Shown in pieces: positions 5,290-61,819 of a stretch of 64,000 nucleotides of DNA. The notes under the pieces are model-generated. The model made no database searches and was not told the DNA's origin. It saw only the letters and a program-made list of their open reading frames with translations. Source of the stretch: a virus; IMG/VR virus record IMGVR_UViG_3300018876_000008, positions 1 through 64,000 of that record. One strand, 5' to 3'. The translations under genes were made by a program, and so were the position numbers. Positions within the stretch are counted from its first letter, which is position 1. Every line of letters begins with the position of its first letter.

Positions 5290-5305
5290 TTAAAAAATAA
5301 ATAAA

Positions 5306-7228: not shown

Positions 7229-7265
7229 TAAAATGAATAAAATTAATAAAATTTAATAATAAAAC

Positions 7266-7273
7266 TATTTATA
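7266..7273 (+). promoter_or_regulatory. TATTTATA motif, putative phage late promoter
   Basis: Sits 4 nt before the ATG at 7278. The same motif recurs in sense orientation upstream of many genes. Confidence 0.5.
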
Positions 7274-7277
7274 AAAC

Positions 7278-9524: not shown

Positions 9525-9533
9525 AATAATCAT

Positions 9534-10136
9534 ATGTCAAAACAAGAATTAAATAACACCCCTAAGGTATTAGGGTTGGATATATCTACAAAAACAATCG
9601 GATGGGCATTGTTTGATAATAACACTCAAAAATTATTAGAGTTAACACATTTTTCACCTATTATTAAACCTAAACCTGAAGAAAAAATAGAAGAATTACT
9701 TCTTAAAGTGGATGGTTTTAAGGAGAAGATTGAAGGTTACAAAGATTTAAATATTGAAAGAGTTGTAATTGAAGAACCACTTTTAAACTCAAATAATATA
9801 TGGACTGTAGGTACGTTATTGAGATATAATTCAATGATTTCAAGAGTAATATATGAAGTATTAGGTATTATACCTAATTACATATCTACATATAATTCAC
9901 GTAAATTTGCATGGCCTGACTTAGTTAATGATAATGGTAAGGGTAAAAAAGTATTATTTGGAGGACTTCCTAAAACTATCGATAAAAAAGAAATAGTTTG
10001 GAAAAAAGTTGCAGATGCGGAACCACAAATTGTTTGGTTGTATACTCGAAATAATACTTTAAAGAAAGAATGTTTTGACCAGGCGGACGCTTACACATGT
10101 GTCCAAGGTTATATGAAACAACAAGGTCTTTGGTAA
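9534..10136 (+). CDS. RuvC-like Holliday junction resolvase
   Basis: RNase H-fold acidic motifs VLGLDIS, VVIEEP and DQADA. Confidence 0.75.
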   Translation: MSKQELNNTPKVLGLDISTKTIGWALFDNNTQKLLELTHFSPIIKPKPEEKIEELLLKVDGFKEKIEGYKDLNIERVVIEEPLLNSNNIWTVGTLLRYNSMISRVIYEVLGIIPNYISTYNSRKFAWPDLVNDNGKGKKVLFGGLPKTIDKKEIVWKKVADAEPQIVWLYTRNNTLKKECFDQADAYTCVQGYMKQQGLW

Positions 10137-11105: not shown

Positions 11106-11962
11106 TAGAAAATATAGAAAAAGTATCTCAAGAGATTAGAAATATAATTGAGGATAAGAAAAAAGAATTAGAACTTTCTTTTATTGAAGAAGACCATATA
11201 TACTTTATGAAAGATAGAAATGGTAAAGTAAGAAATAATTTCCCTTCAGTATCTAAAGTTTTAAAACATTTTTATGAACCATTTCCTGCTGAGGATATTG
11301 CATATAAAAAAGCTAAAGGGGATAGAGTAGAGATGGAAAGATTGTTAGATGAGTGGGCTGCGGCAGGTTCATACGCAACTAATATGGGTTCACGTACACA
11401 CTTTATATTAGAGAAGAAGACTATTGATGATTATGGTGGTTATAAAGATGTGAGAGAACCTCTTTTCGAGTGTGATTTAGAGCAAGAAATGAGAAGTAAT
11501 TCTATGATTAAAGGGGGTGAAAAGTTTCTTAAATTGATGAAAGAAAGAGGAGCGTATCTATTAGATACTGAGATGGTCTTAGGTCATCCCGACTTAGGTT
11601 ATACTGGTCAGCCTGATAAAGTTTGGTTAATTATGAATAGAGAAAAAACAGGATTTGGTTTGGTTATAACTGATTGGAAAACAAACAAAGAAAAAAATTT
11701 TAAGACTAATCAATGGACTAAACCAATGAAAGAACCCTTTCAAGATTTACCAGATAATGCCTTAGGCCATTATAAATTACAATTACCTTTTTATGGTAGA
11801 TTAATTTTAAAAATGTTGGAGGGTACAAAGTACGAAAACATTTCACTTTTAGGATGTGTTATCGTATTATTAAAAGACAATACAGAGTTTGAAGAATTCA
11901 AAGTACCTTCTTCAGTTATTAATAAAGTTATGAGTTTGAAATTATCAGATTATGGAATTTAA
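11102..11962 (+). CDS. PD-(D/E)xK exonuclease (RecB/Cas4-like phage nuclease)
   Basis: PSVSKVL, GSRTH, GQPDKV, ITDWKT, QLPFY. The ATG at 11102 overlaps the primase stop; the ORF track starts at 11081. Confidence 0.75.
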   Translation: MIENIEKVSQEIRNIIEDKKKELELSFIEEDHIYFMKDRNGKVRNNFPSVSKVLKHFYEPFPAEDIAYKKAKGDRVEMERLLDEWAAAGSYATNMGSRTHFILEKKTIDDYGGYKDVREPLFECDLEQEMRSNSMIKGGEKFLKLMKERGAYLLDTEMVLGHPDLGYTGQPDKVWLIMNREKTGFGLVITDWKTNKEKNFKTNQWTKPMKEPFQDLPDNALGHYKLQLPFYGRLILKMLEGTKYENISLLGCVIVLLKDNTEFEEFKVPSSVINKVMSLKLSDYGI

Positions 11963-12563
11963 AGAAAGATTTCCTGATTTATTCAATAGTGAAAATATTG
12001 ATGAATGGAAAAAAAAGAATATTAGAAAAGAATTTTTATCTTACGAATGGGATATGATGGTTCAAGAAGTTGCACCTGATGTTTTTGAATTTCCATTATT
12101 TAATAAAGAATTTTGTGACAACTTCGTCAAAGTTTTAAATAGTATTAATTGGGACCAAATAAATAGATGGGGAACACCCGTCTACTCAACTAATTTAAGA
12201 AAGTTTGATATTGACAAAGTTATGACTCATATCATACATGAGTATATCTTTAGCATAATTCAGAAAGAATGGAAATTAGAGGGTAAAAAATGGAAATTAG
12301 TACAACCTGATAATAATATATTTAAACTCGAAGAGGGTCAAGAAATAAGACTTCATCATGACTACGTACATATATCATTATATTGTAAATTAGACGGAGA
12401 CAGTGAAGGTGGGGAGATAGTTTTTGATAAGTACGGTAAAACTATAACCCCTAAACAGGGCTATGTTTATATGTACCCTGGTCAAATTACCCATAGATAT
12501 GGGATAAAAAGAATAAATAAAGGTGACAGATATTTTTTAATGTCATATTGTATAAGTGATTAG
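11952..12563 (+). CDS. PLOD/lysyl-hydroxylase-like 2OG-Fe(II) oxygenase domain, paralogue 1 (distal Fe-ligand His replaced by Tyr)
   Basis: PDVFEFPLFNKEFCD, LHHD, EGG and YPGQITHRYG...GDRY align to the PLOD C-terminal domain. Confidence 0.8.
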   Translation: MEFKERFPDLFNSENIDEWKKKNIRKEFLSYEWDMMVQEVAPDVFEFPLFNKEFCDNFVKVLNSINWDQINRWGTPVYSTNLRKFDIDKVMTHIIHEYIFSIIQKEWKLEGKKWKLVQPDNNIFKLEEGQEIRLHHDYVHISLYCKLDGDSEGGEIVFDKYGKTITPKQGYVYMYPGQITHRYGIKRINKGDRYFLMSYCISD

Positions 12564-12717
12564 AGTATCGAATAACATATTATTAATTTTAGGTGTAACA
12601 TTTTTTCTAATTGGTAGGGAAATTGGAGGAATATTTCCTTCATTTATGTTTGGTTTATGTTTTGGAATGATATATCTAAATTACAGAGAAGATAAAAAAA
12701 ATAGTAATGGAAAATAA
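12556..12717 (+). CDS. Small two-helix membrane protein (53 aa, GTG start; not in ORF track)
   Basis: MIRVSNNILLILGVTFFLIGREIGGIFPSFMFGLCFGMIYLNYREDKKNSNGK. It fills the gap between the two oxygenase genes and overlaps both. Confidence 0.45.
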   Translation: MIRVSNNILLILGVTFFLIGREIGGIFPSFMFGLCFGMIYLNYREDKKNSNGK

Positions 12718-13342
12718 ACACAGTAATTATATTCATCCTGAATTATACACTTATTTTGATAATCCTGATGAGTGGGAAAAAAGATTCCTTAAAAATGAAG
12801 TTAAATCTAAAAATTGGGAATTATATGTACAAGAAGAATTATTGAACATATATACAATACCTGTATTTACTGATGAGTTTTGTGATTTTATTATAGAAGA
12901 GGCCGAATCTTGCAATTGTTGGACTGTAGATAGACACGAAAGTTATCCCACTACAGATATGGTTTTAAACACTATAGGTTTAGGTGAAACTTATCATGCT
13001 ATATTAAAAAAATATATATGGCCTTTAAGTAAAAAATTATTTAAATTGGAAGAAGAGTCATGGTTAGATATGAGAAGTGAAAACTTTATTGCTAGATATC
13101 ATCCATATGCTCAGTATCATTTATCACTTCATCATGATGCAAGTCAAATAACTACTGTAATTACTTTAAACGAAGATTTTGAAGGGGGAGGTACTTATTT
13201 CCCTAATCAAAACGCAAAACTAAAAGGTAAAAAGGGGGATATGTCTATTCATCCTGGTCAAATAACACATTGGCATGGGGGGTTACCCGTTGAGGCAGGT
13301 CAAAGATATATTATAGTCTCTTTTTGTTCATTAAAACGATAA
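12707..13342 (+). CDS. Stand-alone procollagen lysyl hydroxylase (PLOD/LH) catalytic domain, paralogue 2, intact active site
   Basis: HPELYTYFDNPDEW, PVFTDEFCD, PTTD, NFIARY, HHDAS, FEGGG, HPGQITHWHGGLP...RYIIVSF; collinear with the PLOD3 LH domain. Confidence 0.88.
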   Translation: MENKHSNYIHPELYTYFDNPDEWEKRFLKNEVKSKNWELYVQEELLNIYTIPVFTDEFCDFIIEEAESCNCWTVDRHESYPTTDMVLNTIGLGETYHAILKKYIWPLSKKLFKLEEESWLDMRSENFIARYHPYAQYHLSLHHDASQITTVITLNEDFEGGGTYFPNQNAKLKGKKGDMSIHPGQITHWHGGLPVEAGQRYIIVSFCSLKR

Positions 13343-40776: not shown

Positions 40777-42210
40777 ATGTACTGTAGAGATAATAGTTAT
40801 AGTGATGGTATCGACAGATTTATAGTTATTACTGTCGCTACAGAAAATAACAAAGAATTAGACCGATTTAGAGAATCGTGTCATATTAATAATATACCCT
40901 ACAAGATTATTGGTTTAGGTCAAGAATGGACAGGAGGTGAGGCTAAAGATGGGGTATTGTTACAACCTGGAGGAGCACAAAAAATAAATCTTCTTAAGAA
41001 AGAATTAGAGGATTATCCTAATTTATCTAATCACATAATTTTATTTACAGATTCATATGATGTAATAATTAATTCAACACCAAGTGAAATAGTTAGTAAA
41101 TTTAGGACTATGAAATCACCCGTAGTATTTTCAGCTGAAAAAACTTGTTGGCCGAAAAAAGATTTACAAAATAAGTACCCACCATCAACTACGGAGTATA
41201 AATTTTTAAATTCAGGAGGATTTATTGGTTACGGAGACCACATAATTAAAATTGTAAATAAAATTGATGTAAGCAATGATTACGATGACCAACTATATTA
41301 CACTGAAAGATACTTTGAGTCTTTAGCTGAAGATAAGAATATCATTTTAGATAATAATCAAAATATATTTCAAACCCTTAATGAATCCTTAGATGATGTT
41401 TTGGTGAAGGACGGTAAAGTTTTTAACAGAATAACAAATACGTATCCTTTAATAATTCATGGAAATGGTGGTTCGTCAATAAAAAATGTCCTAAATGATT
41501 ATTACCGCAGGTTATTTGATAAAGATGTTACAACTATAAATTATTTTAAGAAGGAAGATGACTTGGAGGATTTTGAGGATAATGTTAATATAGGATTATT
41601 TCTTGATGAGGAAGTCCCTAACATTAATCAAACTTTCGACCACATTAGATTTTTAAAATACCCTAAAGATAAAATATCCCTCACAATATATTATTCTGAT
41701 AACACACACAAGTATGATATTGATTTGTTTGAGAAAAAATATTCACATATTTTTAAAGAGTTTTATGTAAAATTTAATGACGATGGTAAAATAAAGTCAC
41801 GAAAAGACTTTTTGATTAATTCTTATGGTCTGTCTGATTATACAGTTTTAATGGAATCAAATCACATTTTTAGAAATAATAAATCTTTAGGGTTGATTAT
41901 CAAAGAGTGTGAAGGTATAATAACTCCTATGATTCATAAAGAAGGTAGTGATTGGGTTAATTTTGATTGTGAAAAGACTAAAAAGGATTCTTACAGGACT
42001 TATGAAACTAAAGGAATATGGGAGGTAAATTATCTTTACGGTATACACGTCATAAAAAATGATTTAATTCCTTACTGTGTAAATTCTTTATATATTAATT
42101 ACGATAACTATACAGACCCTAATTGGGACATTATGTTGTGTGATAATTTAAAAAGTAGAGGGGAAACTCTACAAATTTCAAATACAAACTATTACGGAGG
42201 AATTATATAA
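40777..42210 (+). CDS. PLOD3/LH3-like collagen hydroxylysine glycosyltransferase (GT + accessory domains, no hydroxylase domain)
   Basis: VITVAT, GLGQEW.GG, GGAQK, FTDSYDV, FSAEKTCWP, FLNSGGFIG, DDQLYY, IFQTLN, IHGNG; accessory domain LKYPKD, PMI....W.NF, GIWEV.Y, ISN...YG. Confidence 0.88.
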   Translation: MYCRDNSYSDGIDRFIVITVATENNKELDRFRESCHINNIPYKIIGLGQEWTGGEAKDGVLLQPGGAQKINLLKKELEDYPNLSNHIILFTDSYDVIINSTPSEIVSKFRTMKSPVVFSAEKTCWPKKDLQNKYPPSTTEYKFLNSGGFIGYGDHIIKIVNKIDVSNDYDDQLYYTERYFESLAEDKNIILDNNQNIFQTLNESLDDVLVKDGKVFNRITNTYPLIIHGNGGSSIKNVLNDYYRRLFDKDVTTINYFKKEDDLEDFEDNVNIGLFLDEEVPNINQTFDHIRFLKYPKDKISLTIYYSDNTHKYDIDLFEKKYSHIFKEFYVKFNDDGKIKSRKDFLINSYGLSDYTVLMESNHIFRNNKSLGLIIKECEGIITPMIHKEGSDWVNFDCEKTKKDSYRTYETKGIWEVNYLYGIHVIKNDLIPYCVNSLYINYDNYTDPNWDIMLCDNLKSRGETLQISNTNYYGGII

Positions 42211-46623: not shown

Positions 46624-46908
46624 ATGAAAAAAGTAGTATTATATACGATGAAAGGTTGTCCTCACTGTGATGAGATGAAACAAAAATTAATTGAGTCTAA
46701 AATAAGATTCACTCAAAGAGATATTCATAAATTTGAAAAAGAATATGATTTGTTTGTCGAGGCAACCGGTAGTGAGTATATACCTGCATTCATGTTGTTA
46801 AACATTGGAAAAAATAATAAGACATCAGACGTAAAATTAATGGTACCTGATGATGACTTTGATGATTTAGATGAAGCTTTGTATAAGGTGAGAAGATATT
46901 TAGACTAA
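46624..46908 (+). CDS. Glutaredoxin-like protein
   Basis: YTMKGCPHC, YIP. Confidence 0.8.
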   Translation: MKKVVLYTMKGCPHCDEMKQKLIESKIRFTQRDIHKFEKEYDLFVEATGSEYIPAFMLLNIGKNNKTSDVKLMVPDDDFDDLDEALYKVRRYLD

Positions 46909-47766
46909 TATCATCTCACCTACTTTATCTTTTATTTTCCATATATTCTCATTACTTATGATTTCTTCTTCAAAATCATAATTCTCTAAATCCCATCTTG
47001 ATATAATTTTATTAGGTTCAAATGTAAATAAATCTAATATTAGTGATTCCAACCATTCTGTACTAGTTATTAAACTTTTAGAAGTTATCTTAAGACTTAG
47101 GTTTTCCCAGTTGATGGATTCAAAATCTGAATCTGTAAAAAATTCAATATTTATATCCTTACACAAATTTCTTTCAAAAATATTATATATTATATAGTTG
47201 AAGTAAGAGTCAAATAACTTACTAGATTTTAGATGTTTACCATATTTTTCAGAAGAATAAAAACTTTCAGATAGATTATTAAGGTTTACAATTTTATAGT
47301 CATCAAAATTACTTATGATATTATTTAAATTCTGAGAATTATATTTTTTATTTATAAGTAGAGTATTTAAATCTGTACACGCGGTCAATCTATAATCTAA
47401 ACCATTTAACGTGTCGTTATAAGTTATTTTATTTAAGTTATTGATAAAGTCATCTTTAATATAAGTTTTATTAATATAAATTGGGTCTTCTTTGATAACC
47501 TGACTATATTCTATCAAATCAACAACATTAAATGTAATTGATTTATTAAATAATTTTTGATAGTACGAATTAAATAGTTTGGAAAAGTTTAAAGGGGTAC
47601 TATGTGTTGTGATGCCTTTAACCACTACAAAATTTCCATTGTTTATTACTTGTATATTTGTTTTATGATTTTTTGTTTCTTTATTTATTTCAGTAATTAT
47701 TTTATTAGCTAATAAATTAGTTAACTTTTTACCGTTAGAATAAGTTTCTATAATTTGATTCGACAT
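46900..47766 (-). CDS. Hypothetical protein; N-terminus faintly resembles SAM synthetase N-domain
   Basis: 288 aa ORF; KLTNLLANKI...FVVVKGITT. Confidence 0.5.
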   Translation of the reverse strand: MSNQIIETYSNGKKLTNLLANKIITEINKETKNHKTNIQVINNGNFVVVKGITTHSTPLNFSKLFNSYYQKLFNKSITFNVVDLIEYSQVIKEDPIYINKTYIKDDFINNLNKITYNDTLNGLDYRLTACTDLNTLLINKKYNSQNLNNIISNFDDYKIVNLNNLSESFYSSEKYGKHLKSSKLFDSYFNYIIYNIFERNLCKDINIEFFTDSDFESINWENLSLKITSKSLITSTEWLESLILDLFTFEPNKIISRWDLENYDFEEEIISNENIWKIKDKVGEMILV

Positions 47767-47904: not shown

Positions 47905-50900
47905 ATGGCTAAAGACGTAAGAATAGTACCACAACCCACAGGAACTACACTTCCTTATATTTTATTTGAAAATGCAAATGGTGATGTTATGTCACTTAAT
48001 GTTAGTGATGATGGTCGCATAGTATTTTCAGGTGCCACTCATGGTAATAATTTAGTAACCATAGATAGTGACCGTGTTAATATTAAAGGCTCAATACATA
48101 TGGGTAATGACATGGGATTCAACGGGGTTATGACTATTACCGATACTGGAGGGTGGAAAGGTAGTACAGTCGGATTAAAAGGTAATAAAGGTACTGTAGG
48201 ACCAACAGGTCCAAAAGGACATCAAGGACCAACAGGCCCCGCAGGTGCAAGAGGGACAACCGTTAAAGGTGAAAGTGGTGATAAAGGAAGAAAAGGTCTT
48301 AAAGGTCTTAAAGGGCTTAAAGGTAATATTGGTACCAGTAGAATATTTTATAATGATGGAGATAAAGGGTTAAAAGGAAAACAAGGACCACAATCAACTG
48401 ATAAAGGAGATAAAGGACTTAAAGGTCTTAGAGGTGTTAAAGGCGAAATAGGTCAATTAGGTCCAATAGGTATACAAGGACCACAAGGCCCTGTGGGTTT
48501 AAAAGGAATTAACTCAGATAAAGGTATAGTTGGTGATAAAGGGGATAAAGGATTAAAAGGTCTAAAAGGTTTAAAAGGGTTAAAGGGTCCTGTCGGATTA
48601 AAAGGTAAAAAAGGTATTTTGGGACCACAAGGTCCTATTTCTCAAGCCGGTAATGTTGCGGATAAAGGAACAAAAGGTCCAAAAGGGCCACAAGGTCAAA
48701 AGGGACCAAAAGGAATTCAAGGACCACAAGGTACAAAAGGGTTAACCGCAAACACAGGAGGTCAAGGACCAATAGGGCCTAAAGGGCCAACAGGGAGTAA
48801 AGGTATTAAAGGACTTCGTGGTAACAAAGGGGTTAAGGGACTTAAAGGACTTAAGGGGCTTAAAGGTCGTAAAGGTCTTATTGCGGTAACTGGTGATAAT
48901 GGTCAACAAGGCCCAATCGGTCAACAAGGTCCCATTGGTTTTAAAGGTGATAAAGGACTTAAAGGTTTAGAAGGACCAAAAGGACCAAAAGGTATCAAAG
49001 GTCCTCAAGCCGAAACAACCGTTCAAGGACCACAAGGTTCACAAGGACTACAAGGAAATACTTCTACCGATAAAGGTATCAAAGGTCAGAAGGGATTAAA
49101 AGGTAATAAAGGTATAAAAGGATTAAAACCTAATAGTGGTGAAAGAGGGAATATAGGAGAAACAGGACCTAATGGGCCTCAAGGTATTCAAGGTCCGAAA
49201 GGAGATGATAAAGGTCAAAAAGGTTTTAAAGGTATAAAAGGTAAAAAAGGAGTTAAAGGAGCCATAGGTCCACAAGGTGAAATTGGTAATCAAGGTAATA
49301 TTGCTACCACTGGTGATAAAGGTCTTAAAGGATTATTCGGTCCAACAGCATTTAAAGGATTAAAAGGGTTAAAAGGTAATAAAGGATTAAAAGGTCCAAA
49401 AAATATTCAAGGACCACAAGGACCTGTCGGGTTGGATGCGGATAGAGGTTCGATAGGTAATCAAGGACTTCAATCGACCGATAAAGGATTAAAAGGTCCA
49501 AAAGGTCCAAAAGGAATTAAAGGATTAAAAGGTTTAAAACCTGGAAGAGGACCCCAACCTAGTGTAGGGTCGAGGGGAGTTCAAGGACCACAAGGACCAC
49601 AAGGACCGCAAGGGCCTACATCAGCAGATAAAGGATTTAAGGGACTTAAGGGACTTAAAGGTATTACAGGTGTAAGAGGAGAACAAGGTATAGGTGGACA
49701 AAGAGGAACTCAAGGGACACAAGGACCAACAGGAAATAGAGGTAATACAGGTACTAGCTCAGATAAAGGAAATAGAGGTCCCCAAAGTACTGAAAAAGGA
49801 TTAAAAGGACCTGACGGAGGTAGAGGACCTCAATCGACCGATAAAGGACAAAAGGGACCTCAAGGAAGTAGAGGGGCAAAGGCCTCAACAGGTGACCAAG
49901 GACCAACCAGTACTGATAGAGGGAATCAGGGTGAAACCGGTCCTAATGGGCCAAATTCAACTGATAAGGGACAAAAAGGACCTAGAGGAGGAATAGGTAC
50001 TCAAGGACCTAAAGGTTATAAAGGACCACAAGGACCTGCTAACAATGACAGAGGCCCGGTAGGTGATAAAGGTTTTAAAGGACCAAAAGGAAATAGAGGT
50101 GCTATCGGTGGACAAGGTTCAGTGGGTAACACTTCTACCGTTAAGGGTTCTATAGGTCCCTCTAATACTACAAAAGGTCTTAAAGGAATTAAAGGTAGAA
50201 AGGGTAGTGAAGGTCCAAGAGGACCAGAAGGCCCTCAAGGACCAAGAGGTACAGCATCTACAGTTAAAGGATATAAAGGACCTAGTAATAGTGTTAAAGG
50301 TATTAAAGGGTTAAAAGGTTTAAAAGGTTTAAAGGGCCCAAGAGGACCACAAGGTCCAAGAGGACCACAAGGTAGTACATCTACAGTTAAAGGTTCTATA
50401 GGAAATCCTAATAACTTGCAGGGTTTAAAAGGTTCAAAAGGTTTAAAAGGTCTAAAAGGTAGTACAGGACCAAGAGGTCCACAAGGGGCGAGAGGTAATG
50501 TGTCGACAGTTAAAGGATATAAAGGTTTAGCCAATAATACAAAAGGAAATACAGGAGAAACGGGACCTCAAGGTTTAAAAGGTCGACAAGGTAGTCAAGG
50601 ACCACAAGGTCCAAGAGGAACGGCTTCTACTGTTAAAGGACCAAAAGGATTGACAAATACAACTAAAGGTCCAAAAGGTCTTAAAGGGTTAAAAGGACTT
50701 AAAGGAACCAAAGGTCGAAAAGGAGACAAAGGGTTAATAGGTAATCAGTCCACAGTCAAAGGATATAAAGGACCTAATAATACTACAAAAGGACCTAAAG
50801 GACCTAAAGGGTTAAAAGGGTTAAAAGGAAATTTTGGACCTGCAGGATTTAAAGGATTTAAAGGTCCACAATCAACAGTCAAAGGTGCTATAGGTGAACA

Positions 50901-51765
50901 AGGAGTTAAAGGACTAAAAGGAATAAAAGGATATAAAGGACCTGACGGAGGTAGAGGACCTCAAGGAAATAAAGGTGTAAAAGGTCCTGTTGGAAGACCT
51001 GGACCTACCGGACCAACAAATACAACTAAAGGTTTAAAAGGACCAACAGGCCCAAATGGACCTCAAGGACCGAGAGGAGGAATAGGACCACAAGGTATTA
51101 AAGGTCAGAGAGCCCAACAAGGACCATTAGGAGATGTTGGTGATGAGTATGGTCCAAAAGGTCGTAAAGGTGCTATAGGACCTACCAATACAGATAAAGG
51201 TCCAAAAGGACCTATCGGTCGTGATAATCTAACTAAAGGTGCGAAAGGACCTAAAGGTGATATAGGTCCTGTCCTCGTAAAAAATGGACCTGGTGACCAA
51301 GGACCAACAGGTCCAAGAGGAAATAAAGGACCCAAAGGTCCGATAGGTAGAACGGGACCAACAGGACCTATAGGGGGTACAGGACCACAAGGTCCACAAG
51401 GTCCAAGAGGGGCTCAAGGGGTACAAGGACCTCAAGGACCTGCTTCAGATAAGAGAGTTAAAAATAATATTAAGTCTTTAAAGGGTAATTTATCTAAATT
51501 AAAAAATATTAGAGGTGTTAAATTTACATGGAAGGGTGGAATAAATCACAGATTTAATATAAAAGGAAATGATATCGGTTTTATCGCTCAAGAAATTGAT
51601 AAAGTTATACCTGACGTGGTATTTACTGGTGAAGACGGATTCTTAAAATTAGAATACGGTAAGTTAGTTGCTATTGGGATTGGTTCAATACAAGAGCAAC
51701 ATACACGTATAACTCAACTTAAGGAGAGAATTAACATATTGAAATCAAAAGTTTTAAATGGGTAG
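47905..51765 (+). CDS. Giant Lys-rich collagen-like fibre protein 1 with C-terminal peptidase S74 intramolecular chaperone
   Basis: Gly-X-Y from aa 90 to 1180; SDKRVKNNI, GFIAQE, LEYGKL and a terminal coiled coil. Confidence 0.88.
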   Translation: MAKDVRIVPQPTGTTLPYILFENANGDVMSLNVSDDGRIVFSGATHGNNLVTIDSDRVNIKGSIHMGNDMGFNGVMTITDTGGWKGSTVGLKGNKGTVGPTGPKGHQGPTGPAGARGTTVKGESGDKGRKGLKGLKGLKGNIGTSRIFYNDGDKGLKGKQGPQSTDKGDKGLKGLRGVKGEIGQLGPIGIQGPQGPVGLKGINSDKGIVGDKGDKGLKGLKGLKGLKGPVGLKGKKGILGPQGPISQAGNVADKGTKGPKGPQGQKGPKGIQGPQGTKGLTANTGGQGPIGPKGPTGSKGIKGLRGNKGVKGLKGLKGLKGRKGLIAVTGDNGQQGPIGQQGPIGFKGDKGLKGLEGPKGPKGIKGPQAETTVQGPQGSQGLQGNTSTDKGIKGQKGLKGNKGIKGLKPNSGERGNIGETGPNGPQGIQGPKGDDKGQKGFKGIKGKKGVKGAIGPQGEIGNQGNIATTGDKGLKGLFGPTAFKGLKGLKGNKGLKGPKNIQGPQGPVGLDADRGSIGNQGLQSTDKGLKGPKGPKGIKGLKGLKPGRGPQPSVGSRGVQGPQGPQGPQGPTSADKGFKGLKGLKGITGVRGEQGIGGQRGTQGTQGPTGNRGNTGTSSDKGNRGPQSTEKGLKGPDGGRGPQSTDKGQKGPQGSRGAKASTGDQGPTSTDRGNQGETGPNGPNSTDKGQKGPRGGIGTQGPKGYKGPQGPANNDRGPVGDKGFKGPKGNRGAIGGQGSVGNTSTVKGSIGPSNTTKGLKGIKGRKGSEGPRGPEGPQGPRGTASTVKGYKGPSNSVKGIKGLKGLKGLKGPRGPQGPRGPQGSTSTVKGSIGNPNNLQGLKGSKGLKGLKGSTGPRGPQGARGNVSTVKGYKGLANNTKGNTGETGPQGLKGRQGSQGPQGPRGTASTVKGPKGLTNTTKGPKGLKGLKGLKGTKGRKGDKGLIGNQSTVKGYKGPNNTTKGPKGPKGLKGLKGNFGPAGFKGFKGPQSTVKGAIGEQGVKGLKGIKGYKGPDGGRGPQGNKGVKGPVGRPGPTGPTNTTKGLKGPTGPNGPQGPRGGIGPQGIKGQRAQQGPLGDVGDEYGPKGRKGAIGPTNTDKGPKGPIGRDNLTKGAKGPKGDIGPVLVKNGPGDQGPTGPRGNKGPKGPIGRTGPTGPIGGTGPQGPQGPRGAQGVQGPQGPASDKRVKNNIKSLKGNLSKLKNIRGVKFTWKGGINHRFNIKGNDIGFIAQEIDKVIPDVVFTGEDGFLKLEYGKLVAIGIGSIQEQHTRITQLKERINILKSKVLNG

Positions 51766-54700
51766 AGATATTAACATAAATCCAACAGGTGGTACAATTC
51801 ATTTTTCAGGTCAATCAAATACTAAGATTGATGTGAAATATACTAGCGGTGAATTAAATTTTAATACTCACTTAGGTAACGACTTTAAAATAACGAATCA
51901 TTTAGAACTTGATAGTTTAAAATTTATGGCTGAAACCTCAGTTGTAAAAAATAATAGTGATGAATTAATTGACGACCGTGGTAACTGGAAAGGGCATGCA
52001 ATGAATATGGGAGGGCCAACAGGACCAACAGGGCCACAAGGACCTGTAGGGGCAAAAGGTGATGAACCATCTGCAGGTCAAAGAGGTGCAAAAGGTGAAA
52101 AAGGTATTAAAGGACAGACTTCATTAGAACAAGGACCTACGGGTGACGTTGGACCAAAAGGTCTTAAAGGTATTAAAGGTGAGAAAGCCTCCCAAGGACC
52201 ACAAGGACCTGCAGGGGTAAAAGGTTTAATTGGACCACAAGGTTCTGAAGGACCAGCTGGACCTGCCGCGATTAAAGGGGATATTGGGACACAAGGACCT
52301 AAAGGGTTAAAAGGTTTACAAGGTATTAAAGGTTCAATAGGTAATTCAATTAAAGGTCCTATAGGTGCAGATGCAGATAAAGGTAATACAGGACCTACCG
52401 GTAATAATAAAGGAGATATTGGACCTAAAGGTATTGTTGGGGATAAAGGTCCACAAGGACCAATTGGTCTTACAGCAAATTTAGATGTTTATGTTTTCTA
52501 TGATGCAACATCAATGCCAAGTGATAAGGCTAAAGAGGCTTCTCAAAGTGTTAGAGATTGGTTCCAAACGGTAAACGGTAATGGTGACATTAACAAATTA
52601 TACGAGGGTGTAATCGGTAAAAACAATGTTAATGGTGAAAACTGGTTATGGTGGGCATCTTATCCATATCTTGGTTCACTTAGTGGTGGTACGTTGAGTA
52701 ACGGAACACAGTTGAGTGAATTTAATAGTGCGGTACCTAACGCCACTTATGATTCCGATTATTGTAAATCTAATTCGGGTGGTAATTGTGTACCAAGAAA
52801 TTCACAATTTAATGATGGTCTAACCACATATAGAAGAATTAACAGAGGTCTTAATTTAGATACTGGTGCTGTAGAAAATATTTCTCAAGGGGTTCCTTTT
52901 GACCATAGTAATTTAAATAATACAGAAACATCGGGACAGGGTTCATTCGGTGGTGATAATACTAATTATTTAGTTATCATAGTCGCCGATGAGTCAGATG
53001 GTATTGTTGGTTTATATCATGGACAGTTAGGTGGGACACCAACCAACGCTACTAAGAGTGATTTATATAATAAACCATTTGAACTGAATGGTGATTATTG
53101 GAATAATAGTGCCGGTACTGAATATACTAATAGATATTTACACGACTACTGTGCATATATACAAGTTTATGAAGACATTATATCTAATAGACAAGGAAAT
53201 GCAAGAGGTTTAATATATCCTGTAGTAAATCCACTTAGAGGTACCGCCACATATGCATTTGTTCAACATGCGGTTGGTGCTGTTGAAGGTGAAACCATTA
53301 CTACTCAAGAATTTTTAAATAGTTACGGAGACCAAATGGATTCAGTTGGTCCTGAAAATTTAAATTTAACTGCATTAACACATACTAATGTATATTCAGC
53401 TTTAGCTTCTGAAAATTGTTATACGAGTTTAAATGTAGATTTTAAAAATGGGGCGGGGTTAAAACACTTTGGTTTTGGAGTTGACCCAACCGTAGATAAT
53501 TTTACTGAAGAGGTGGTAACAAATGCGTTAACATCATTTTTACGTCAACAAGGTGATACAGGTGACCAAGGTAATAAAGGTATTACAGGTGATGATAAAG
53601 GAACAAAAGGTCTTAAAGGTATAAAGGGACTAAAAGGTATTAAAGGACAAAGAGGTCCTAATACGGATTCAGGTTTAAAAGGTGCGATAGGTGACCAAGG
53701 ACCTGTTGGTATTGACGGTCCAATAGGTAACTTAAAAGGACCCAAAGGTGAAGTAGGTGTTGTTGGGCCAAAAGGTTTAAAAGGTCCTGATGGTAGTATA
53801 GGTGATTCACCAAAAGGTGCTGTTGGGTTAACAGGTGACCAAGGACCTACAGGTGGTAGAGGTGAAACATCGACAGATAAGGGTCAAAAAGGTATTAAAG
53901 GACAAAGAGGTGTTAAGGGATTAAAAGGATTAAAAGGTATCAAAGGGTTAATAGCAGTTCAAGGGGATGTAGGACCAACAGGACCTCAATCAGATAAAGG
54001 AATTGTTGGTGATAAAGGTAATAAAGGGCTTAAAGGTTTAAAAGGATATAAAGGTATCAAAGGAATTAAAGGTCCTATTGGTATAATTGCCGACCAAGGA
54101 GATACAGGACCCGTTTCTCAAAACGGTGAAGGTGCAGACAAAGGATTCAAAGGACTTAAAGGTATAAAAGGATTAAAAGGTAAGAAGGGTATTGAAGGAC
54201 CTAAAGGACCTACAGGTACATCTTCGGAAGAAGGTACTGTTGGACCTACAGGTGAAAAAGGAGAAAGAGGACCACAAGGAGATAAAGGTAATAAAGGTTT
54301 AAAAGGTCTTAAAGGTAAAAAAGGTATAAAAGGTACTAAAGGACTTAAAGGTTTAATTGCCAGTCAAGGAGATAAAGGACCACAAGGGCCAATTGGTGTT
54401 AAAGGTGAGCAAGGAAATAAAGGGGACAAAGGACTTAAAGGTATTAAAGGTCAAAAAGGTTATAAAGGATTAACCGGTCCTCAAGGTAACAAAGGTTTAA
54501 TGGCTTCTCAAGGAGATACAGGACCACAAGGACCGGCAAGTATTAAAGGTCAAAAAGGACTTAAAGGTATTAAAGGTCAAAAAGGATATAAAGGGTTAAG
54601 AGGTAATAAAGGTCCAAAAGGTTATAAGGGATTAAAAGGTATTACAGGTGATAAAGGATTTATTAGTACAGTTACCGGAGATAAAGGTATTAAAGGTCAA

Positions 54701-56941
54701 AAAGGGTTTAGAGCAACCGATGGAGATAAAGGTATAAAAGGGCAAAAAGGTTATAAAGGTAATCAAGGTCCAAGAGGAACTGCATCTACAGTAAAAGGTT
54801 TAAAAGGTCGTAAAGGTTTTAAAGGTAATAGGGCTACTGATGGTGTAAAAGGATTTAAAGGATTTAAAGGATTAAAAGGGTTACGAGGACCTTTGGGACC
54901 ACAAGGTAGTCAGGAGGGCCCAAAAGGATTAATAGGTGCAGAAGGCCCTATAGGTCCTACTGCCGATAAAGGTTTAAAAGGATTAAAAGGTATTAAAGGA
55001 CCCAAAGGACCTAAAGGACCTAAAGGATTAAGGGCAGGTGCAGTTGGACCAACAGGACCTAAAGGACCAATCGGACCTACTGCAGAAAAAGGATTTAAAG
55101 GTCTAAAAGGTCCAAAAGGTTATAAGGGACCTAAAGGACCTACAGGTTCCACAACAGGTGCTGAAGGAGATACAGGACCACAAGGTCCAACAGGTCCTAC
55201 CGCTTACAAAGGGTTTAAAGGGATAAAAGGATATAAAGGTCCGAAGGGTCCAAAAGGACCTCTTGGTTTGACAACAGGACCTAAAGGGTTAAAAGGACCT
55301 ATAGGTCAAACAGGACCAACTGCGAATAAAGGCCAAAAAGGATATAAAGGACCAAAAGGATATAAAGGACCTAAGGGTCCACTTGGACCGACTACAGGGG
55401 ATAAAGGACAAAAAGGTAAGAAAGGTTCGATAGGTGATAGTGCAAATAAAGGATTAAAAGGTCCAAAAGGGCCTAAAGGTTATAAGGGGCCTAAAGGAGA
55501 AAAAGGTCCTCATTCAAACAATAAAGGACCCGTAGGACCTCAAGGACCACTCGGACCTACCGCTGATAAAGGTGAACAAGGACCTAAAGGACCAATTGGA
55601 AATAAAGGACCTAAAGGACCAAAAGGAAGTGCAACCGGTGATAAAGGGCAACAAGGAGAGACAGGACCACAAGGACCTCTTGGAAAATCAGGACCAACTG
55701 GAGGTGTTGGAGATAAAGGTCCGAAAGGTGCCAAAGGTCCTCAAGGGTTAAATGGGATACAGTCAGGACCTACAGGACCACAAGGACCTGTTAATAACAC
55801 AAAAGGACAAAAAGGATATAAGGGACCTGAAGGTCCAATAGGTATACAAGGTCCCGAAGGAGAAATCGGTAATACGGAGGGAGCTCAAGGACCTAAAGGT
55901 AGTGTAAGTACGGTTAAAGGTCCTAAAGGACCTAAAGGTTATAAAGGACTGAAAGGATTATACGGTCCCAAAGGTTTAAAGGGTAGACAAGGACCGACTG
56001 ATATTAAAAAATTTATTGGTCAACAAGGTGATAAAGGACCAAGAGGAACAGATTCTACAGTTAAAGGACCGACAGGTCCACAAGGGGCTAAAGGGCCAAA
56101 AGGACCCATAGGACCTAAAGGAGCTAGAAAAACTCAAGGACCGACAGGTCCACAAGGGGCTAAAGGGCCAAAAGGTTACAAAGGACCTACAGGGCCACAA
56201 GGTCCAAGAGGTCAAAAAGGACGTGTAGGTGCAAGTGGACTTAGTGGTCCACAAGGGGAAAAAGGATTTAAAGGTAGGAAAGGACCTGCGGGACCTTCAG
56301 GTGTATCGTGTTATTCACACGATGTTGCACTTATAAGTGATAAAGCATTACCATGTAGCTTTTGTGATAGAGATGCGCCACCGTGTGGTGAGGAACCCAA
56401 CGTTACAGTATATTCTCCTAATTCAGGGGCATTAAGTGCGGGTAATTTTGTTTATACTGACTCAAATTGTACCGAATGTAGAACACCGAGACCTGGTTGT
56501 TTTGATGATAAGTCAGGCCAATTTACATTATGGGACGCTGACCATAATAATAGTTCTATACATACTTGGGATTTACAATTTTGTGGATTATTAAAGTGTG
56601 CGGATTGTTCCTTCTCAGATGAAAGACTTAAAACTGGTATTAGAACAATATCTAATTCATTAGAATCCTTATTAAACATTCAAGTTACTGAGTACGATTG
56701 GAATGAGAAATATTCGGGTTACGATTTCTTAAAAGAAAGACAAAAACTTCACTCTATTGGTATGATTGCACAAGATATCCAAAAAATATTTCCTGAAGTA
56801 GTTTACAAAAGAAGTGATGGTTACTACGCTATTAAATATTTCAAATTAAATGCACTAATAATAGAATCGATTAAGTCTCACCAAGTATTTATAGATGATA
56901 TTGATGAACAAATAAAATGGTTAAAAACACAAATTAATTAA
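51758..56941 (+). CDS. Giant Lys-rich collagen-like fibre protein 2 with inserted vWA-like domain, Cys-rich domain and S74 chaperone
   Basis: Gly-X-Y at aa 86-239 and 599-1517; insert with VFYDATSM and VIIVADESD; [15 protein letters not shown]. Confidence 0.88.
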
Positions 56942-59900
56942 TGGCTAATATTATTATATACCCTACAGGGAGTACTACTAATAGTAATCCTCACATTATA
57001 TTTACAGGTTCAGGTAGTAATGATTATACTATTGAAATAGATACTAGTGGTGATTTAATATTTAAATCGTCTAGCAATATTTTTAAAATTAAAGATAGTG
57101 CTCAACCATTTCAATTTGACGGTGAAGTAGATGTGGTTAATAGTGAATTATATGTGGGTAATACTATGGTTGTTGATTCAAATGGTAATTGGGTTGGAGT
57201 ATTATCAGGATTAAAAGGAATACAAGGACCAATTGGTGCAAAAGGAAGAGTTGGTGACCAAGGACCTAAAGGTGCAAAAGGTCAAGAAGGTCCTGTTGGT
57301 GAGCAAGGAGATAAAGGTAATCTAGGTATTAAAGGAAGAATAGGTTCTACAGGAATTAAAGGTGCAAAAGGACCTATTTCAGTTAAAGGTGATAAAGGTA
57401 ATAGAGGGCCTCAAGGGGAAGACGGAGCGGTAGGACCTAAAGGTTTAAAAGGTGTAAGACCTTCAGACAGTAGTAAAGGTATAAAAGGACCAAAAGGTTT
57501 AAAAGGAGAAACATCTAACGATAAAGGTTTAAAAGGACCTATAGGTTTTAAAGGTATTAAAGGTAATAAAGGACCGAAACAAGTTACAGGACCCCAAGGG
57601 TCTCAAGGAGGTATTTCGCCAAAAGGACCTATTGGGTTACAAGGTCCGACAAGTACTGACAAGGGTCAAAAAGGACCTAAAGGTATTAAAGGAGTAAAAG
57701 GTCAGAAAGGTATTGACGGTAATAAAGGTCCTGAAGGTGATAAAGGTTTAAGATATACTGATGGGGACCAGGGGCCACAAGGACCTACAGGTCCTACTGC
57801 AGACAAAGGTATTAAAGGTAACAAAGGTGTTAAGGGGTTATTAGGTCCACAGGGAATACAAGGACCTGATGGTACTGTTGGTACTCAAGGACCACAAGGA
57901 CCCTTAGGACCACAGGGTGTACAATCTTCAGATAAGGGAGATAAAGGTATTAAAGGTATTAAAGGTAGGAAAGGAATTAAAGGTCCTAAACAAGTACGTG
58001 GTAATATTGGTATACAAGGTGATAAAGGTTTTATAGGGCCACAAGGACCTGAAGGACCAGCAGGACCTGCAGCCGTTAAAGGACCTATAGGTCCACAAGG
58101 GCCGATTGGGCCAAAAGGTTTGGAAGGGAACCGAGGGCCACAAGGTTCATCATTAAAAGGACCAACAGGTTCGGGAGGTGAGAAAGGTCCGCAAGGTGAT
58201 AATAGTACAGATAAAGGTCCTATAGGTATAAAAGGACCGATAGGTATAAAAGGTTTTAAAGGACCTAGAGGACCACAATCAGAAGTAAGTGTTGGTGATA
58301 AAGGTAATACTGGACCCATAGGACCACAAGGACCGGCTAGTTCCGATAAAGGACTAAAAGGGCCTCAAGGGTTTAAAGGGTTAAAAGGTAAGAGAGGACC
58401 ACAAGGACCACAAGGAAATAATGAAAAAGGATTTATAGGTGATGGTGCACAAGGGGGAGATATAGGTCCAACAAATACTGATAAAGGACACCAAGGACCA
58501 ACTGGACCTGTCGGACCAAAAGGTTTTGTAGGTACTAAAGGTAGTATAGGTACGTCTCCTCAAGGTGATGTAGGAGATGGTGGTGACCAAGGACCTACTG
58601 CAAGTCAAGGGCCAGCAAGTACCGATAAAGGACTAAAAGGTTTAAAAGGATTTAAAGGGCCAAAAGGGTTTACAGGCCCTCAAGGAGGTATAGGACCTAG
58701 AATTACAGGACCCACAGGACCTAATGGACCTACCGGACCAACAAATACAGATAAAGGTTTAAAGGGTTTTCAAGGACCAACAGGTCCTACTAATACGGAT
58801 AAAGGCACACAAGGGTCTAAGGGGCCAAGAGGACCTCAAGGTGGTCAAGGACCAACAGGACCTAACGGACCTAAAGGTATAACAGGAGGTCAAGGACCTC
58901 AAGGACCTACTAGTACTGATAAAGGTGTTAAAGGTCAAAAAGGATATAAAGGACCTGAAGGGCCAACAGGAGAAAAGGGACCATTAGGACCAAAAGGATT
59001 ACAAAATAATACACAAGGAGACCAAGGACCCGTATCAAGTGATAGGGGTGATAAAGGGCCTAAAGGTATTAAAGGTATCAAAGGTGTTAAAGGACCTAGA
59101 GGTGAACAAGGAGCCAAGAATATTACAGGAGCAAAAGGACCAACAGGACCCCAAGGACCTGCTGGAAATAATAAAGGACCAATTGGACAATTAGGACCCA
59201 TAGGGTTTACAGGTCCACAAGGTTTAAAAGGTAGTACAAGTGATATAGGTAATAAAGGTCCGATAGGACCACAAGGACCCGCGAGTACGGATAGAGGGGT
59301 ACAAGGTAATATAGGTGCATTTATTGGACAAGGCCCCCAAGGACCTCAAGGACCAAATAGTTCAACAGGTCTTGTTGGTGCTCAAGGACCAATAGGACCT
59401 GCGGGTAACAATAAAGGACCAATCGGCCCTCAAGGTAATAGAGCGGATAAAGGACCTATCGGTCCTGTAGGGGAGAAGAATAATACTGGTGGACAAGGAC
59501 CAACCGGCCCACAAGGACCGGCTAGTAGTGATAGAGGACCCCAAGGACCCCAAGGTAATAAGGCACAAACAGGTGACCAAGGACCAATAGGTCCGCAAAA
59601 TATAGTAGGTGCTCAGGGACCCATAGGACCACAAGGGCCGGCTAGTTCAGACAAAGGACCAAAAGGACCATTAGGACCTATAGGACCTATAGGACCACAA
59701 GGCTCTATAGGTTCCAAGAATGCGACTGGTGGTGTTGGTGATAGAGGACTTCAAGGAGACCAAGGACAAAATAGAGGACCTCAAGGAGACCAAGGACCAA
59801 TACAGTCAGGAGGTTCTCAAGGTATACAAGGACTAAAAGGGTTAAAAGGACTAAAAGGAGGTAGAGGTACTCAAGGTCCAAATAGTTCTGATAAAGGACC

Positions 59901-60780
59901 AATAGGTCAAAAAGGGCCTAGAGGTCCACAAGGACCAAGAGGAGGAAATGGTATACCAGGACCACAGGGTCCAACAGGACCTAACGGACCGATTGGACCT
60001 GAAGGTAATAAAGGTATTAAAGGAATAAAAGGTTTTATAGGACCTAAAGGTCCCAAAGGACCACAAGGCCCACAAGGCCCAACCGGCCCACAAGGACCAC
60101 TAGGACCGTTAGGGTCAAGTAGTACAGATAAAGGAGAAAAAGGTTCAAAAGGACGTAAAGGACCGATAGGGATAACAGGAGCTAAAGGGCCAAAAGGTTA
60201 CAAAGGACCTAAAGGTTCAATAGGTCTTGATGGTGCGAATGCAGATAAAGGTATTAAAGGTCTAAAGGGTCCTTTACAACTTAAGGGACGTAAAGGTCCT
60301 ATTGGACCACAGGGTCCCACAGGCCCTAAAGGGTCACAAGGATTAATTGGACCTAAAGGTTATAAAGGTCCTACAGGTGGTGGAGGACTTCAAGGAGCCA
60401 CAGGACCTCAAGGACCTGCCGGAGCACAAGGACCAGCAGGAGGACCATCTGACAAAAGATTAAAAGAAAATATTGTTACCATTGATGAAGCACTTAAAAA
60501 AGTATTGAAATTAAGAGGAGTAGAATTTATATGGAGAAAAGAAGGTATTAATGGTGAAATCATTGATGAGGGTGGTAGAAAAGATATTGGTGTTATTGCA
60601 CAAGAAGTTAAAGAGGTTTTACCTGAATTAATTCTTGGTGACGAAGAAAGTGCTTATAGAGTAAGATACGGTGAAATGATATCAATATTATTTGAGGCTA
60701 TTAAAGAACAAGAATCAATACTAGATTTAAAAGAAGATGAGTTAGAAGAGTTAGAGAGAAAATTTAAAGATAATCAGTAA
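56941..60780 (+). CDS. Giant Lys-rich collagen-like fibre protein 3 with C-terminal S74 chaperone
   Basis: Gly-X-Y from aa 90 to 1169; [22 protein letters not shown]. Confidence 0.88.
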
Positions 60781-61819
60781 TCATATCGTTAAGATATTGA
60801 GAAACCAAAGTATGGTCGGCATAATCATAATAACTTCTACTCATTGACGCACCTTCAATTACTTCCTCAGAAATCATTTCTTTAGTCAGGTCTTCAAAGT
60901 CACCATAATACTCAAATACATTTCTGTAATCATCTAACTGATAGTCATCATTAAAAATTGAACTAAATAAATAAGGTATGAATTTGGTAACTTCTATAAT
61001 GTAGTTGTAAATTGTTTTTTCTTCACCATTACTAGTTTTTACGGTCTTAGATTCCCAATCACCACTATTATCTATTTCCAATAGATGTTTAATCTCATTT
61101 ATTATTTCATTATACTTTTCATCAGTATATGCGGTGTTATATGAGTGATGGTGAAGTGAATATAAATTACCTGAAACTTCAGAAGCCTCATCTAATAAGA
61201 CTTTAGTAGATTTTTCATCTTCTTCTAAAATATCCATTACTAATAAAGGGTCTTTAACTTCAACATAATTAGGGTGACCTTGGTCTTGAGCGATATTTTC
61301 TAATAACTCAGTTTCGGGTGAAATTTGAGTTCCTGATAATTCTTCAGATATTGATTTGGCAAGTAAGAATTTATTTTTTTCATTTAACTCTTCAATAACA
61401 TCGGTGTATAAATTTTGAGTAACATCTTGAAATGGTTCGAACCAATCATCTTCACCTAAAATATTTTCAACCATTTCTGATGATGACATTTCACGATGAC
61501 CGTCATCTGATTTAAAAAAAGTACTTAAGTCTGACCTTTCCCCAAGAGTTAAAAAATATTTATCACCTTTTTTACTTATATCACTATAGGTGGAAACAAT
61601 GTTATCGATAGTTTTTTTACGGTCATCAATATAACTCTTTCTTAGATAAGTCATTGGAAACATTTCAATAACACTTTCGTATGTGTCGGAGTTTTGAAGT
61701 AATCCGAACCTTTCTAGTAAATCAAAAAAACTATCCTTATCACCATTGAGATAACGGTTGATAAAGTCTTCAACCTCACCTGAACCTCCTTGTAGTATAC
61801 TGATAATTTTTTCTTTCAT
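60764..61819 (-). CDS. Acidic hypothetical protein
   Basis: 351 aa, Asp/Glu-rich; sense TATTTATA at 61835-61842. Confidence 0.65.

Follow-up and report, generated by a model that had tools for sequence, protein, structure and literature searches.

Do three adjacent collagen-like genes of a virus encode the three different chains of one triple helix, or do they encode three separate fibers of equal length? This question is raised by genes A, B, and C at positions 47,905 to 60,780 of IMG/VR virus record IMGVR_UViG_3300018876_000008; the window, which is the whole stretch of DNA that was analyzed, is the first 64 kb of this 169-kb linear record. On balance, A, B, and C are probably the three alpha-chains of a single 1:1:1 heterotrimeric collagen-like fiber, as judged from their sequences. 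This reading is favored because three such genes were found everywhere, the helices were matched at the level of triplets, the C-terminal Peptidase_S74 (S74) domains were charge-complementary, opposite charges occurred at the same levels of different chains in relatives, in-chain Lys-Gly-Asp/Glu (K-G-D/E) triplets were depleted, and chains A and C would keep no distal domain after cleavage of the S74 domains.

Three coupled genes with matched helices

Genes A, B, and C are co-oriented, and each encodes an N-terminal domain (N-domain), a long collagen tract, and an S74 domain. The ATG of gene B lies 8 nt inside the end of gene A, and the stop codon of gene B shares one base with the ATG of gene C (TAATG), which bears out the overlapping stop and start codons described in an earlier, sequence-only reading of this locus. 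The start-inside-end arrangement of A and B was the same in relatives. The features of the locus, with lengths in amino acids (aa), were as follows:

47905..51765, + strand: gene A, 1286 aa, with an N-domain, interrupted collagen, and a class-A S74 domain (open reading frame (ORF), translation, and Pfam)
47905..48171, + strand: N-domain of A, aa 1-89, all-beta, ending in GGWKG (AlphaFold2 (AF2) model, predicted local distance difference test (pLDDT) 72)
48172..51438, + strand: collagen of A, aa 90-1178, 1089 aa, ~353 effective triplets, 36 interruptions
51445..51762, + strand: Peptidase_S74 of A, with the S-x4-K dyad motif SDKRVK and a basic C-terminal coiled-coil helix
51758..51765, + strand: overlap of A and B, with the start of B within the last codons of A (ATGGGTAG)
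51758..56941, + strand: gene B, 1727 aa, with an N-domain, collagen split by an insert, a Cys-rich domain, and a class-B S74 domain
52013..52468, + strand: collagen part 1 of B, aa 86-237, 152 aa
52469..53551, + strand: globular insert of B, aa 238-598, 361 aa, no family
53552..56302, + strand: collagen part 2 of B, aa 599-1515, 917 aa
56303..56614, + strand: Cys-rich domain of B, aa 1516-1619, between the helix end and S74
56615..56938, + strand: Peptidase_S74 of B (SDERLK), with an acidic C-terminal helix
56941..60780, + strand: gene C, 1279 aa, with an N-domain, collagen, and a class-C S74 domain
57208..60441, + strand: collagen of C, aa 90-1167, 1078 aa, ~350 triplets, 43 interruptions
60448..60777, + strand: Peptidase_S74 of C (SDKRLK), with a mixed or acidic C-terminal helix

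The Pfam family Collagen (PF01391) was detected in all three proteins, with E values of 7e-91 to 1.5e-111 and 9-16 stretches per protein. The collagen tracts had been put at 1091, 1073, and 1080 aa, and re-measurement gave closely similar values of 1089 aa for A, 1069 aa (152 + 917; ~348 triplets) for B, and 1078 aa for C. Each chain contained 253-268 perfect triplets, only 73-79% of the residues lay within perfect Gly-X-Y runs, and the interruptions (36 in A, 43 in B, and 43 in C) were mostly of the G5G, G6G (x-S-T-D-K), and G3G types. A fiber of ~310 nm, as calculated earlier, is an upper estimate because the helices are heavily interrupted; the ~350 effective triplets correspond to roughly 300 nm. 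Lys occupied 34-54% of the Y positions (45% in A), and Pro occupied 32-45% of the X positions. All three chains contained, in the same axial zone, a super-repeat of 40-41 aa that comprised 13 triplets and one or two bulge residues. This 13-triplet unit was a tandem 41-aa repeat at collagen residues ~580-940 in A, and a 40-aa repeat at collagen residues ~460-900 in B and ~600-920 in C.

Related loci were fetched with a conserved downstream gene and the class-A S74 domain, and assembly contigs were added. Every related record that was long enough to judge contained exactly three tandem genes of the N-domain/collagen/S74 type, and loci with one, two, or four such genes were not found among 15 + 80 loci. 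All 7 collagen-containing members of the 80 S74 loci had three genes, and the other 73 had one or two non-collagen S74 genes. The assembly contig L028 contained the same three genes as L031. Helix length was expressed in effective triplets, for which each interruption adds its whole triplets and the left-over residues are counted as bulges. With A, B, and C assigned by S74 class, the ten lineages had the following effective triplets:

L031: A 97, B 97, C 97
L034: A 153, B 152, C 151
L036: A 153, B 152, C 150
L032: A 160, B 160, C 159
L033: A 215, B 213, C 214
L035: A 268, B 268, C 265
L029: A 339, B 327, C 333
L022: A 341, B 336, C 338
This phage: A 353, B 348, C 350
L019: A 365, B 360, C 364

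The triplet number thus differed by 0-3.6% within a lineage over a 3.8-fold range (97-365), with pairwise correlations of r at least 0.9997. Of the 518,400 arrangements in a permutation test with six distinct length states, 1 was as tight as the real one, so that the length match is far beyond chance. Independent variation of the lengths across genomes, which the sequence-only reading had named as evidence against itself, was not found; instead, its proposed check for co-variation in relatives gave a strongly positive result in all ten lineages. Distinct chains with equal and co-varying helix lengths are expected of a heterotrimeric collagen. In the short clade, the class-A chain contained 11-34 extra one-residue bulges that were absent from the other two chains and was 2.6-4.5% longer in residues, yet its triplets were equal to theirs within 0-2%. 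The triplet number is therefore matched better than the residue number. Lineages of the clade to which this phage belongs differed by one 13-triplet (40-41-aa) super-repeat that was gained or lost in each chain.

Globular inserts occurred in a single chain only and at varying positions, and the triplet count excluding the inserts stayed matched. The 361-aa insert of B had no Pfam, PDB, or Atlas match, and its AF2 model was unusable (pLDDT 37). This insert is optional, as L023 had no insert at all, and in L022 it was replaced by a Laminin_G_3-like domain elsewhere in B (L022:6569-7231). The Laminin_G_3/ConA-like lectin fold (E 8e-8) was located at residue 471 or 821 of B, depending on the relative; in L029, the insert occupied B residues 821-1041, and a separate 176-aa domain of no known family occupied C residues 725-900. 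These globular inserts look like exchangeable binding modules.

Two other causes of equal length were considered and rejected. Gene conversion does not fit, because class-specific repeat patterns and bulges were kept and co-linear identity was absent. Length inheritance from the ancestral duplication does not fit either, because the S74 classes predate all lineages and the length has since changed many times.

Two relatives had apparently disrupted class-B genes. In L029, one in-frame TGA (9951-9953) was present where a Gly codon (GGA) is expected, explained either by an error in sequencing or by a nonsense mutation of recent origin. In L024 (G002, ~4800-10100), which is otherwise near-identical, the B gene was split into frames of 582 and 431 aa, probably by repeat mis-assembly or a frameshift.

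Terminal domains and proposed chain selection

Peptidase_S74 (PF13884) was found at the C-terminus of A, B, and C, as had been read from the sequence alone, with E values of 2e-13 to 4e-16 and 50.8-59.5 bits against a cut-off of 22; in the genome search, the domains scored 56.9-65.7 bits. The S-x4-K dyad was present in all three chains, and in relatives it was seen in the class-B and class-C alignment rows and in the junction sequences of all three genes. Autoproteolytic release of S74 would be expected after trimer folding. Between the helix end and S74, there were ~104 residues in B and 2-3 in A and C. The Cys-rich domain that fills this interval was found in all lineages, always in the class-B chain and never in A or C.

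The S74 tree resolved three well-supported classes that predate all lineages. The two clades differed in which N-domain class was combined with which S74 class, and this re-assortment indicates that the set of three is conserved, not any one chain. In solved S74 structures, the C-terminal helices form a central trimeric coiled coil (Protein structures in PMC4690869, PMC8326128), which has been described as the main driver of trimerization and the likely start of folding (PMC8326128, PMC4690869). The C-terminal helices of the three classes differed in mean net charge (A, +2.1; B, -3.2; C, -0.9). Their pairing was scored by a simple count of g-to-e' ion pairs in ten lineages that are not independent. 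On this count, AAA scored -3 to -6 in 10 of 10 lineages, BBB scored 0 to -6 and was repulsive in 5 of 10, and CCC scored -3 to +3. The A-C-B ring scored +2 to +4 in 10 of 10 lineages and the opposite ring ~0, and by this crude method A-C-B exceeded both AAA and BBB in 10 of 10 lineages. A negative self-score was observed in only 1 of 22 control helices from non-collagen phage S74 domains. At the facing positions C-g20 and B-e25, the clade of this phage mostly had E with K or R (one lineage had S at C-g20), and the short clade had R or K with E; aligned in this way, the two positions appear to be a compensating charge swap between different chains.

The C-terminal coiled-coil helix of the S74 domains was supported by the heptad pattern and by the predicted complex. 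The S74 domains of A, C, and B modeled together scored 0.85, and the best of three controls scored 0.40; 58 of 80 solved complexes and 2 of 110 mismatched pairs attained this mark. Contacts agreed by at least 97% between runs, and the pLDDT of the partners was at least 89. In this model, which is not a measurement, the a and d positions formed the lowest-error contacts, confirming the heptad assignment, and the g-face of C lay on B and that of B on A, which is the favorable ring order. The high score may reflect likeness to solved S74 homotrimers, and the complex model therefore does not discriminate between heterotrimers and homotrimers.

At the other end of the chains, the N-domains measured 89 (A), 85 (B), and 89 aa (C), were homologous with a paralogue identity of 21-27%, and all ended in G-x-W-x-G, in line with the ~85-89-aa domains ending in GxWxG that had been described. 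The AF2 model of the A N-domain (pLDDT 72) contained six short strands. The N-domain had no Pfam family, no protein match in phage records, and no significant fold match in the PDB; a word-indexed search with the A N-domain as query returned nothing, and because of its variability, the N-domain alignment did not lend itself to scanning for loci. The N-domain profile matched 6-9 tandem stretches in 1400-1800-aa proteins from elsewhere (P0021, P0049, and P0023). These tandem matches suggest that the N-domain is composed of a repeat unit which, in other proteins, makes up long beta-structures.

One mixed helix or several fibers

A 1:1:1 heterotrimer could assemble in five steps. A, B, and C would be translated from one message in roughly equal amounts, a coupling suggested by the overlapping stops and starts. 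Their S74 domains would then associate via the terminal three-helix coiled coil, in which the class charges (A basic, B acidic, and C mixed) would favor an A-C-B ring over A-only or B-only trimers. The S74 trimer would nucleate zipping of the ~350-triplet (~300 nm) helix from the C- to the N-terminus, with one-residue bulges and single-chain globular inserts looping out and the register unchanged. The homologous all-beta N-domains would meet at the other end, where the fiber is probably attached to the virion; such a meeting needs an equal triplet number in the three helices and would explain the matching. Finally, the S74 domains would cleave themselves at the conserved Ser of the Ser-Lys dyad motif that all three carry, leaving a rod on which B supplies a single Cys-rich domain at the tip and a single lateral domain of 361 aa. 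PLOD-like enzymes of the phage may modify Lys residues at Y positions by hydroxylation and glycosylation.

K-G-D/E triplets stabilize homotrimers and are enriched in viral collagens (PMC11923368); in the three chains of this phage, they were depleted (11 observed vs. 29 expected). In L032, one chain had five acidic residues, and four of them were no more than one triplet away from a basic residue of another chain, which had few of these (4 opposite-charge coincidences observed vs. 1.2 under the null); in addition, a combination of Asp, Lys, and Phe, each contributed by a different chain, recurred at triplet levels 12, 33, and 72. In L036, acidic residues clustered in one chain lay opposite basic residues of both other chains (7 observed vs. 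1.3 under the null). No signal was obtained for a rigid register or for interruption coincidence between A and B or A and C, for avoidance of simultaneous interruptions, for banded interruption alignment except between B and C, for same-level triplet identity between chains except in the shortest lineage L031, or for aromatic-aromatic and acid-acid coincidences between chains.

Several of these and other observations weigh against a mixed helix. The interruptions of A in this phage neither coincided with nor avoided those of B and C, and the ungapped in-phase fraction of A against B or C (0.27-0.29) equaled that of shuffled chains, compared with 0.73-0.79 for a homotrimer. Interruptions at matching levels in partner chains were therefore not observed, other than a weak alignment of the B-C pair (z 0.5-3.6). 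All chains were strongly basic, with net charges of +144 (A), +125 (B), and +82 (C), and there was no overall charge complementarity along the helix. Of 30 chain pairs, only 2 gave a strong cross-chain charge signal (z above 4), and three others gave a weaker one. The ~104-aa Cys-rich domain, present in B only, would have to loop out for the helix ends to align, and the coiled-coil score is a crude count over lineages that are not independent. Moreover, every solved S74 is a homotrimer (PMC4690869, PMC8326128), and no S74 or prokaryotic collagen heterotrimer is on record (PMC8968730). The proposal of a 1:1:1 heterotrimer, already made in the sequence-only reading, thus gains from the length matching, the gene number, and the S74 charges, and it loses from the unaligned interruptions of A and the pre-S74 domain of B. 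In C1q and type IV collagen, interruptions are likewise present in only some of the chains. Aligned interruptions are therefore not a strict requirement for a heterotrimer.

The strongest competitor, possible but rather unlikely, is that the genes encode three separate homotrimeric fibers (A3, B3, and C3), the equal length of which is due to a shared functional constraint, for example, a uniform fiber layer or a common reach from the virion. The homotrimeric state of the solved S74 domains (PMC4690869, PMC8326128) and of the prokaryotic collagen-like proteins described so far (PMC8968730) is in its favor. For each chain, the interruptions were in register only with the chain itself (in-phase fraction of 0.73-0.79 vs. 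0.27-0.36 against another chain), and neither avoidance nor coincidence of interruptions was found between A and the other two. In addition, B carries a tip domain of its own ahead of S74, as normal fibers do, and L033 contained in-chain K-G-D motifs that are typical of homotrimers. However, independent fibers would not have to agree to within one to three triplets while their lengths span a 3.8-fold range, and they provide no reason for triplets to match better than residues or for a gene number that is never other than three. A and C would become bare rods with no distal domain once S74 is cleaved, and the coiled coils scored as repulsive for AAA in 10 of 10 lineages and for BBB in 5 of 10, unlike 21 of 22 control S74 helices. 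The opposite charges at the same levels of different chains in L032 and L036, as well as the depletion of K-G-D/E, are also not accounted for by homotrimers. Even with separate fibers, the near-exact triplet matching over a 3.8-fold range needs explaining.

Another mixed assembly, either variable trimers (e.g., 2:1) or a nine-chain bundle of three in-register homotrimers held via the N-domains, is improbable: the length matching and the same-level complementary residues need only side-by-side, in-register chains, and the 13-triplet super-repeat that all chains share in one axial zone could serve lateral packing, but the three conserved S74 classes and a ring that is favorable only as A-C-B point to a 1:1:1 trimer, separate rods would have no connection at their distal ends after cleavage, and strongly basic rods would repel one another.

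The 1:1:1 heterotrimer shares traits with several known systems. As in S74-bearing phage fibers and tailspikes (K1F endosialidase and T5 pb1; PF13884) and in MyRF, a C-terminal Ser-x4-Lys domain is combined with a trimeric coiled coil; the domain directly follows the rod whose folding it aids, and self-cleavage is expected (PMC4690869, PMC8326128). The known S74 fibers are products of single genes and form homotrimers that fold beta-helical or beta-sandwich tips, whereas the triad invariably combines three diverged S74 classes, two of which come after collagen without a tip domain, and the charges of the coiled coil fit a mixed trimer better than pure ones. Phage-encoded collagen-like proteins exist (PMC3368898, PMC8968730), and the present chains resemble Scl1/2, BclA, and EPclA of an enterohemorrhagic Escherichia coli (EHEC) prophage in having Gly-X-Y rods without hydroxyproline and a non-collagenous trimerization domain (PMC3368898, PMC8968730). 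Those proteins form homotrimers and are tens to a few hundred residues long, in contrast to the ~1080-residue, heavily interrupted, Lys-rich chains of this length-matched triad. A phage collagen-like fiber with an S74 chaperone is a known kind of structure; a triplet-exact triad with charge-coded chaperones is new.

In animal heterotrimeric collagens and C1q, chains are selected by a C-terminal non-collagenous domain, the helix zips from the C- to the N-terminus, and the propeptide is removed. The triad is similar in having three paralogous chains of equal length and a C-terminal domain that is predicted to choose partners and then to be removed; as in C1q and type IV collagen, interruptions would be tolerated in a subset of chains. 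It differs from animal collagens in that the selection domain is S74, which has no homology to the C-propeptide, NC1, or gC1q, and in that the interruptions are mostly unaligned; the heterotrimer is here inferred from sequence. The fuller proposal, a natural non-animal heterotrimeric collagen with procollagen-like logic that is 1:1:1, S74-selected, triplet-locked, and furnished with single-strand lectin-like side branches and PLOD-modified Lys, has about an even chance of being correct.

Collagens that are heterotrimers are considered a feature of animals, and the making of defined heterotrimers is an open problem in collagen engineering (PMC8968730). If the chains do form one fiber, it would be a mixed triple helix of a kind so far described only for animal collagens, with the first S74 chaperone that acts as a heterotrimer and with binding modules present in one copy rather than three. 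If the S74 trio selects one chain each, it could provide a small, self-removing, and bacterially expressible registration tag for mixed helices. The family of 97-365 triplets is also a natural series on the tolerance of the helix for one-residue bulges and for whole domain inserts in a single strand.

Genomic surroundings

The record has ~30% G+C and an estimated completeness of 56%. It encodes peptidoglycan hydrolases, a DnaG-type primase, DnaJ, and an ATP-dependent protease. Its source is read here as a large, uncultured tailed phage (jumbo phage). The neighbors of the collagen triad were auxiliary genes, including thioredoxin, a glutamine-synthetase-like gene, a PcfJ-like gene, and GT_PLOD. 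PHROGs and Pfam searches of the neighbors and of large ORFs elsewhere recognized neither capsid nor tail genes in the 169-kb contig (56% complete). The triad was not found in a tail or baseplate module, and its N-domain matched no known attachment family. The neighborhood had no DNA match in phage records, and a second anchor gene (46900-47766) had no relatives among viral contigs. A Bacteroidota-type promoter motif was not found upstream of gene A, and the window contained no excess of matches to it (6 vs. 3.6 expected).

A PLOD-type glycosyltransferase was encoded upstream of the Lys-rich collagens:

40777..42210, + strand: PLOD-type glycosyltransferase (PF25342 GT_PLOD, E 3.6e-75)

This enzyme is a candidate modifier of Gly-X-Lys triplets, although the link is only an inferred one. 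Two OGFOD2-like 2OG-Fe(II) oxygenase genes (11952-12563 and 12707-13342) were also located upstream of the collagens. L028, a syntenic relative, had Lys-poor collagen of the Gly-Ala-Gln type, and no Pfam match to GT_PLOD was found among its genes upstream of the collagens (L028:2820-6177); the presence of the PLOD enzyme may therefore track the Lys content of the collagen.

Downstream of the triad, a convergent 351-aa gene of no known family (60764-61819, - strand) adjoined the triad in all near relatives, and its 3' end overlapped that of gene C by 17 nt (60764-60780). A 144-aa ORF antisense within gene C (57885-58319, - strand) is most likely an artifact of the repetitive, purine-rich collagen coding strand. 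Elsewhere in the window, and in keeping with a possible Bacteroidota host, a 640-aa protein (5306-7228) contained SprB repeats (E 5e-11), a family known from the gliding-motility adhesins of Bacteroidota.

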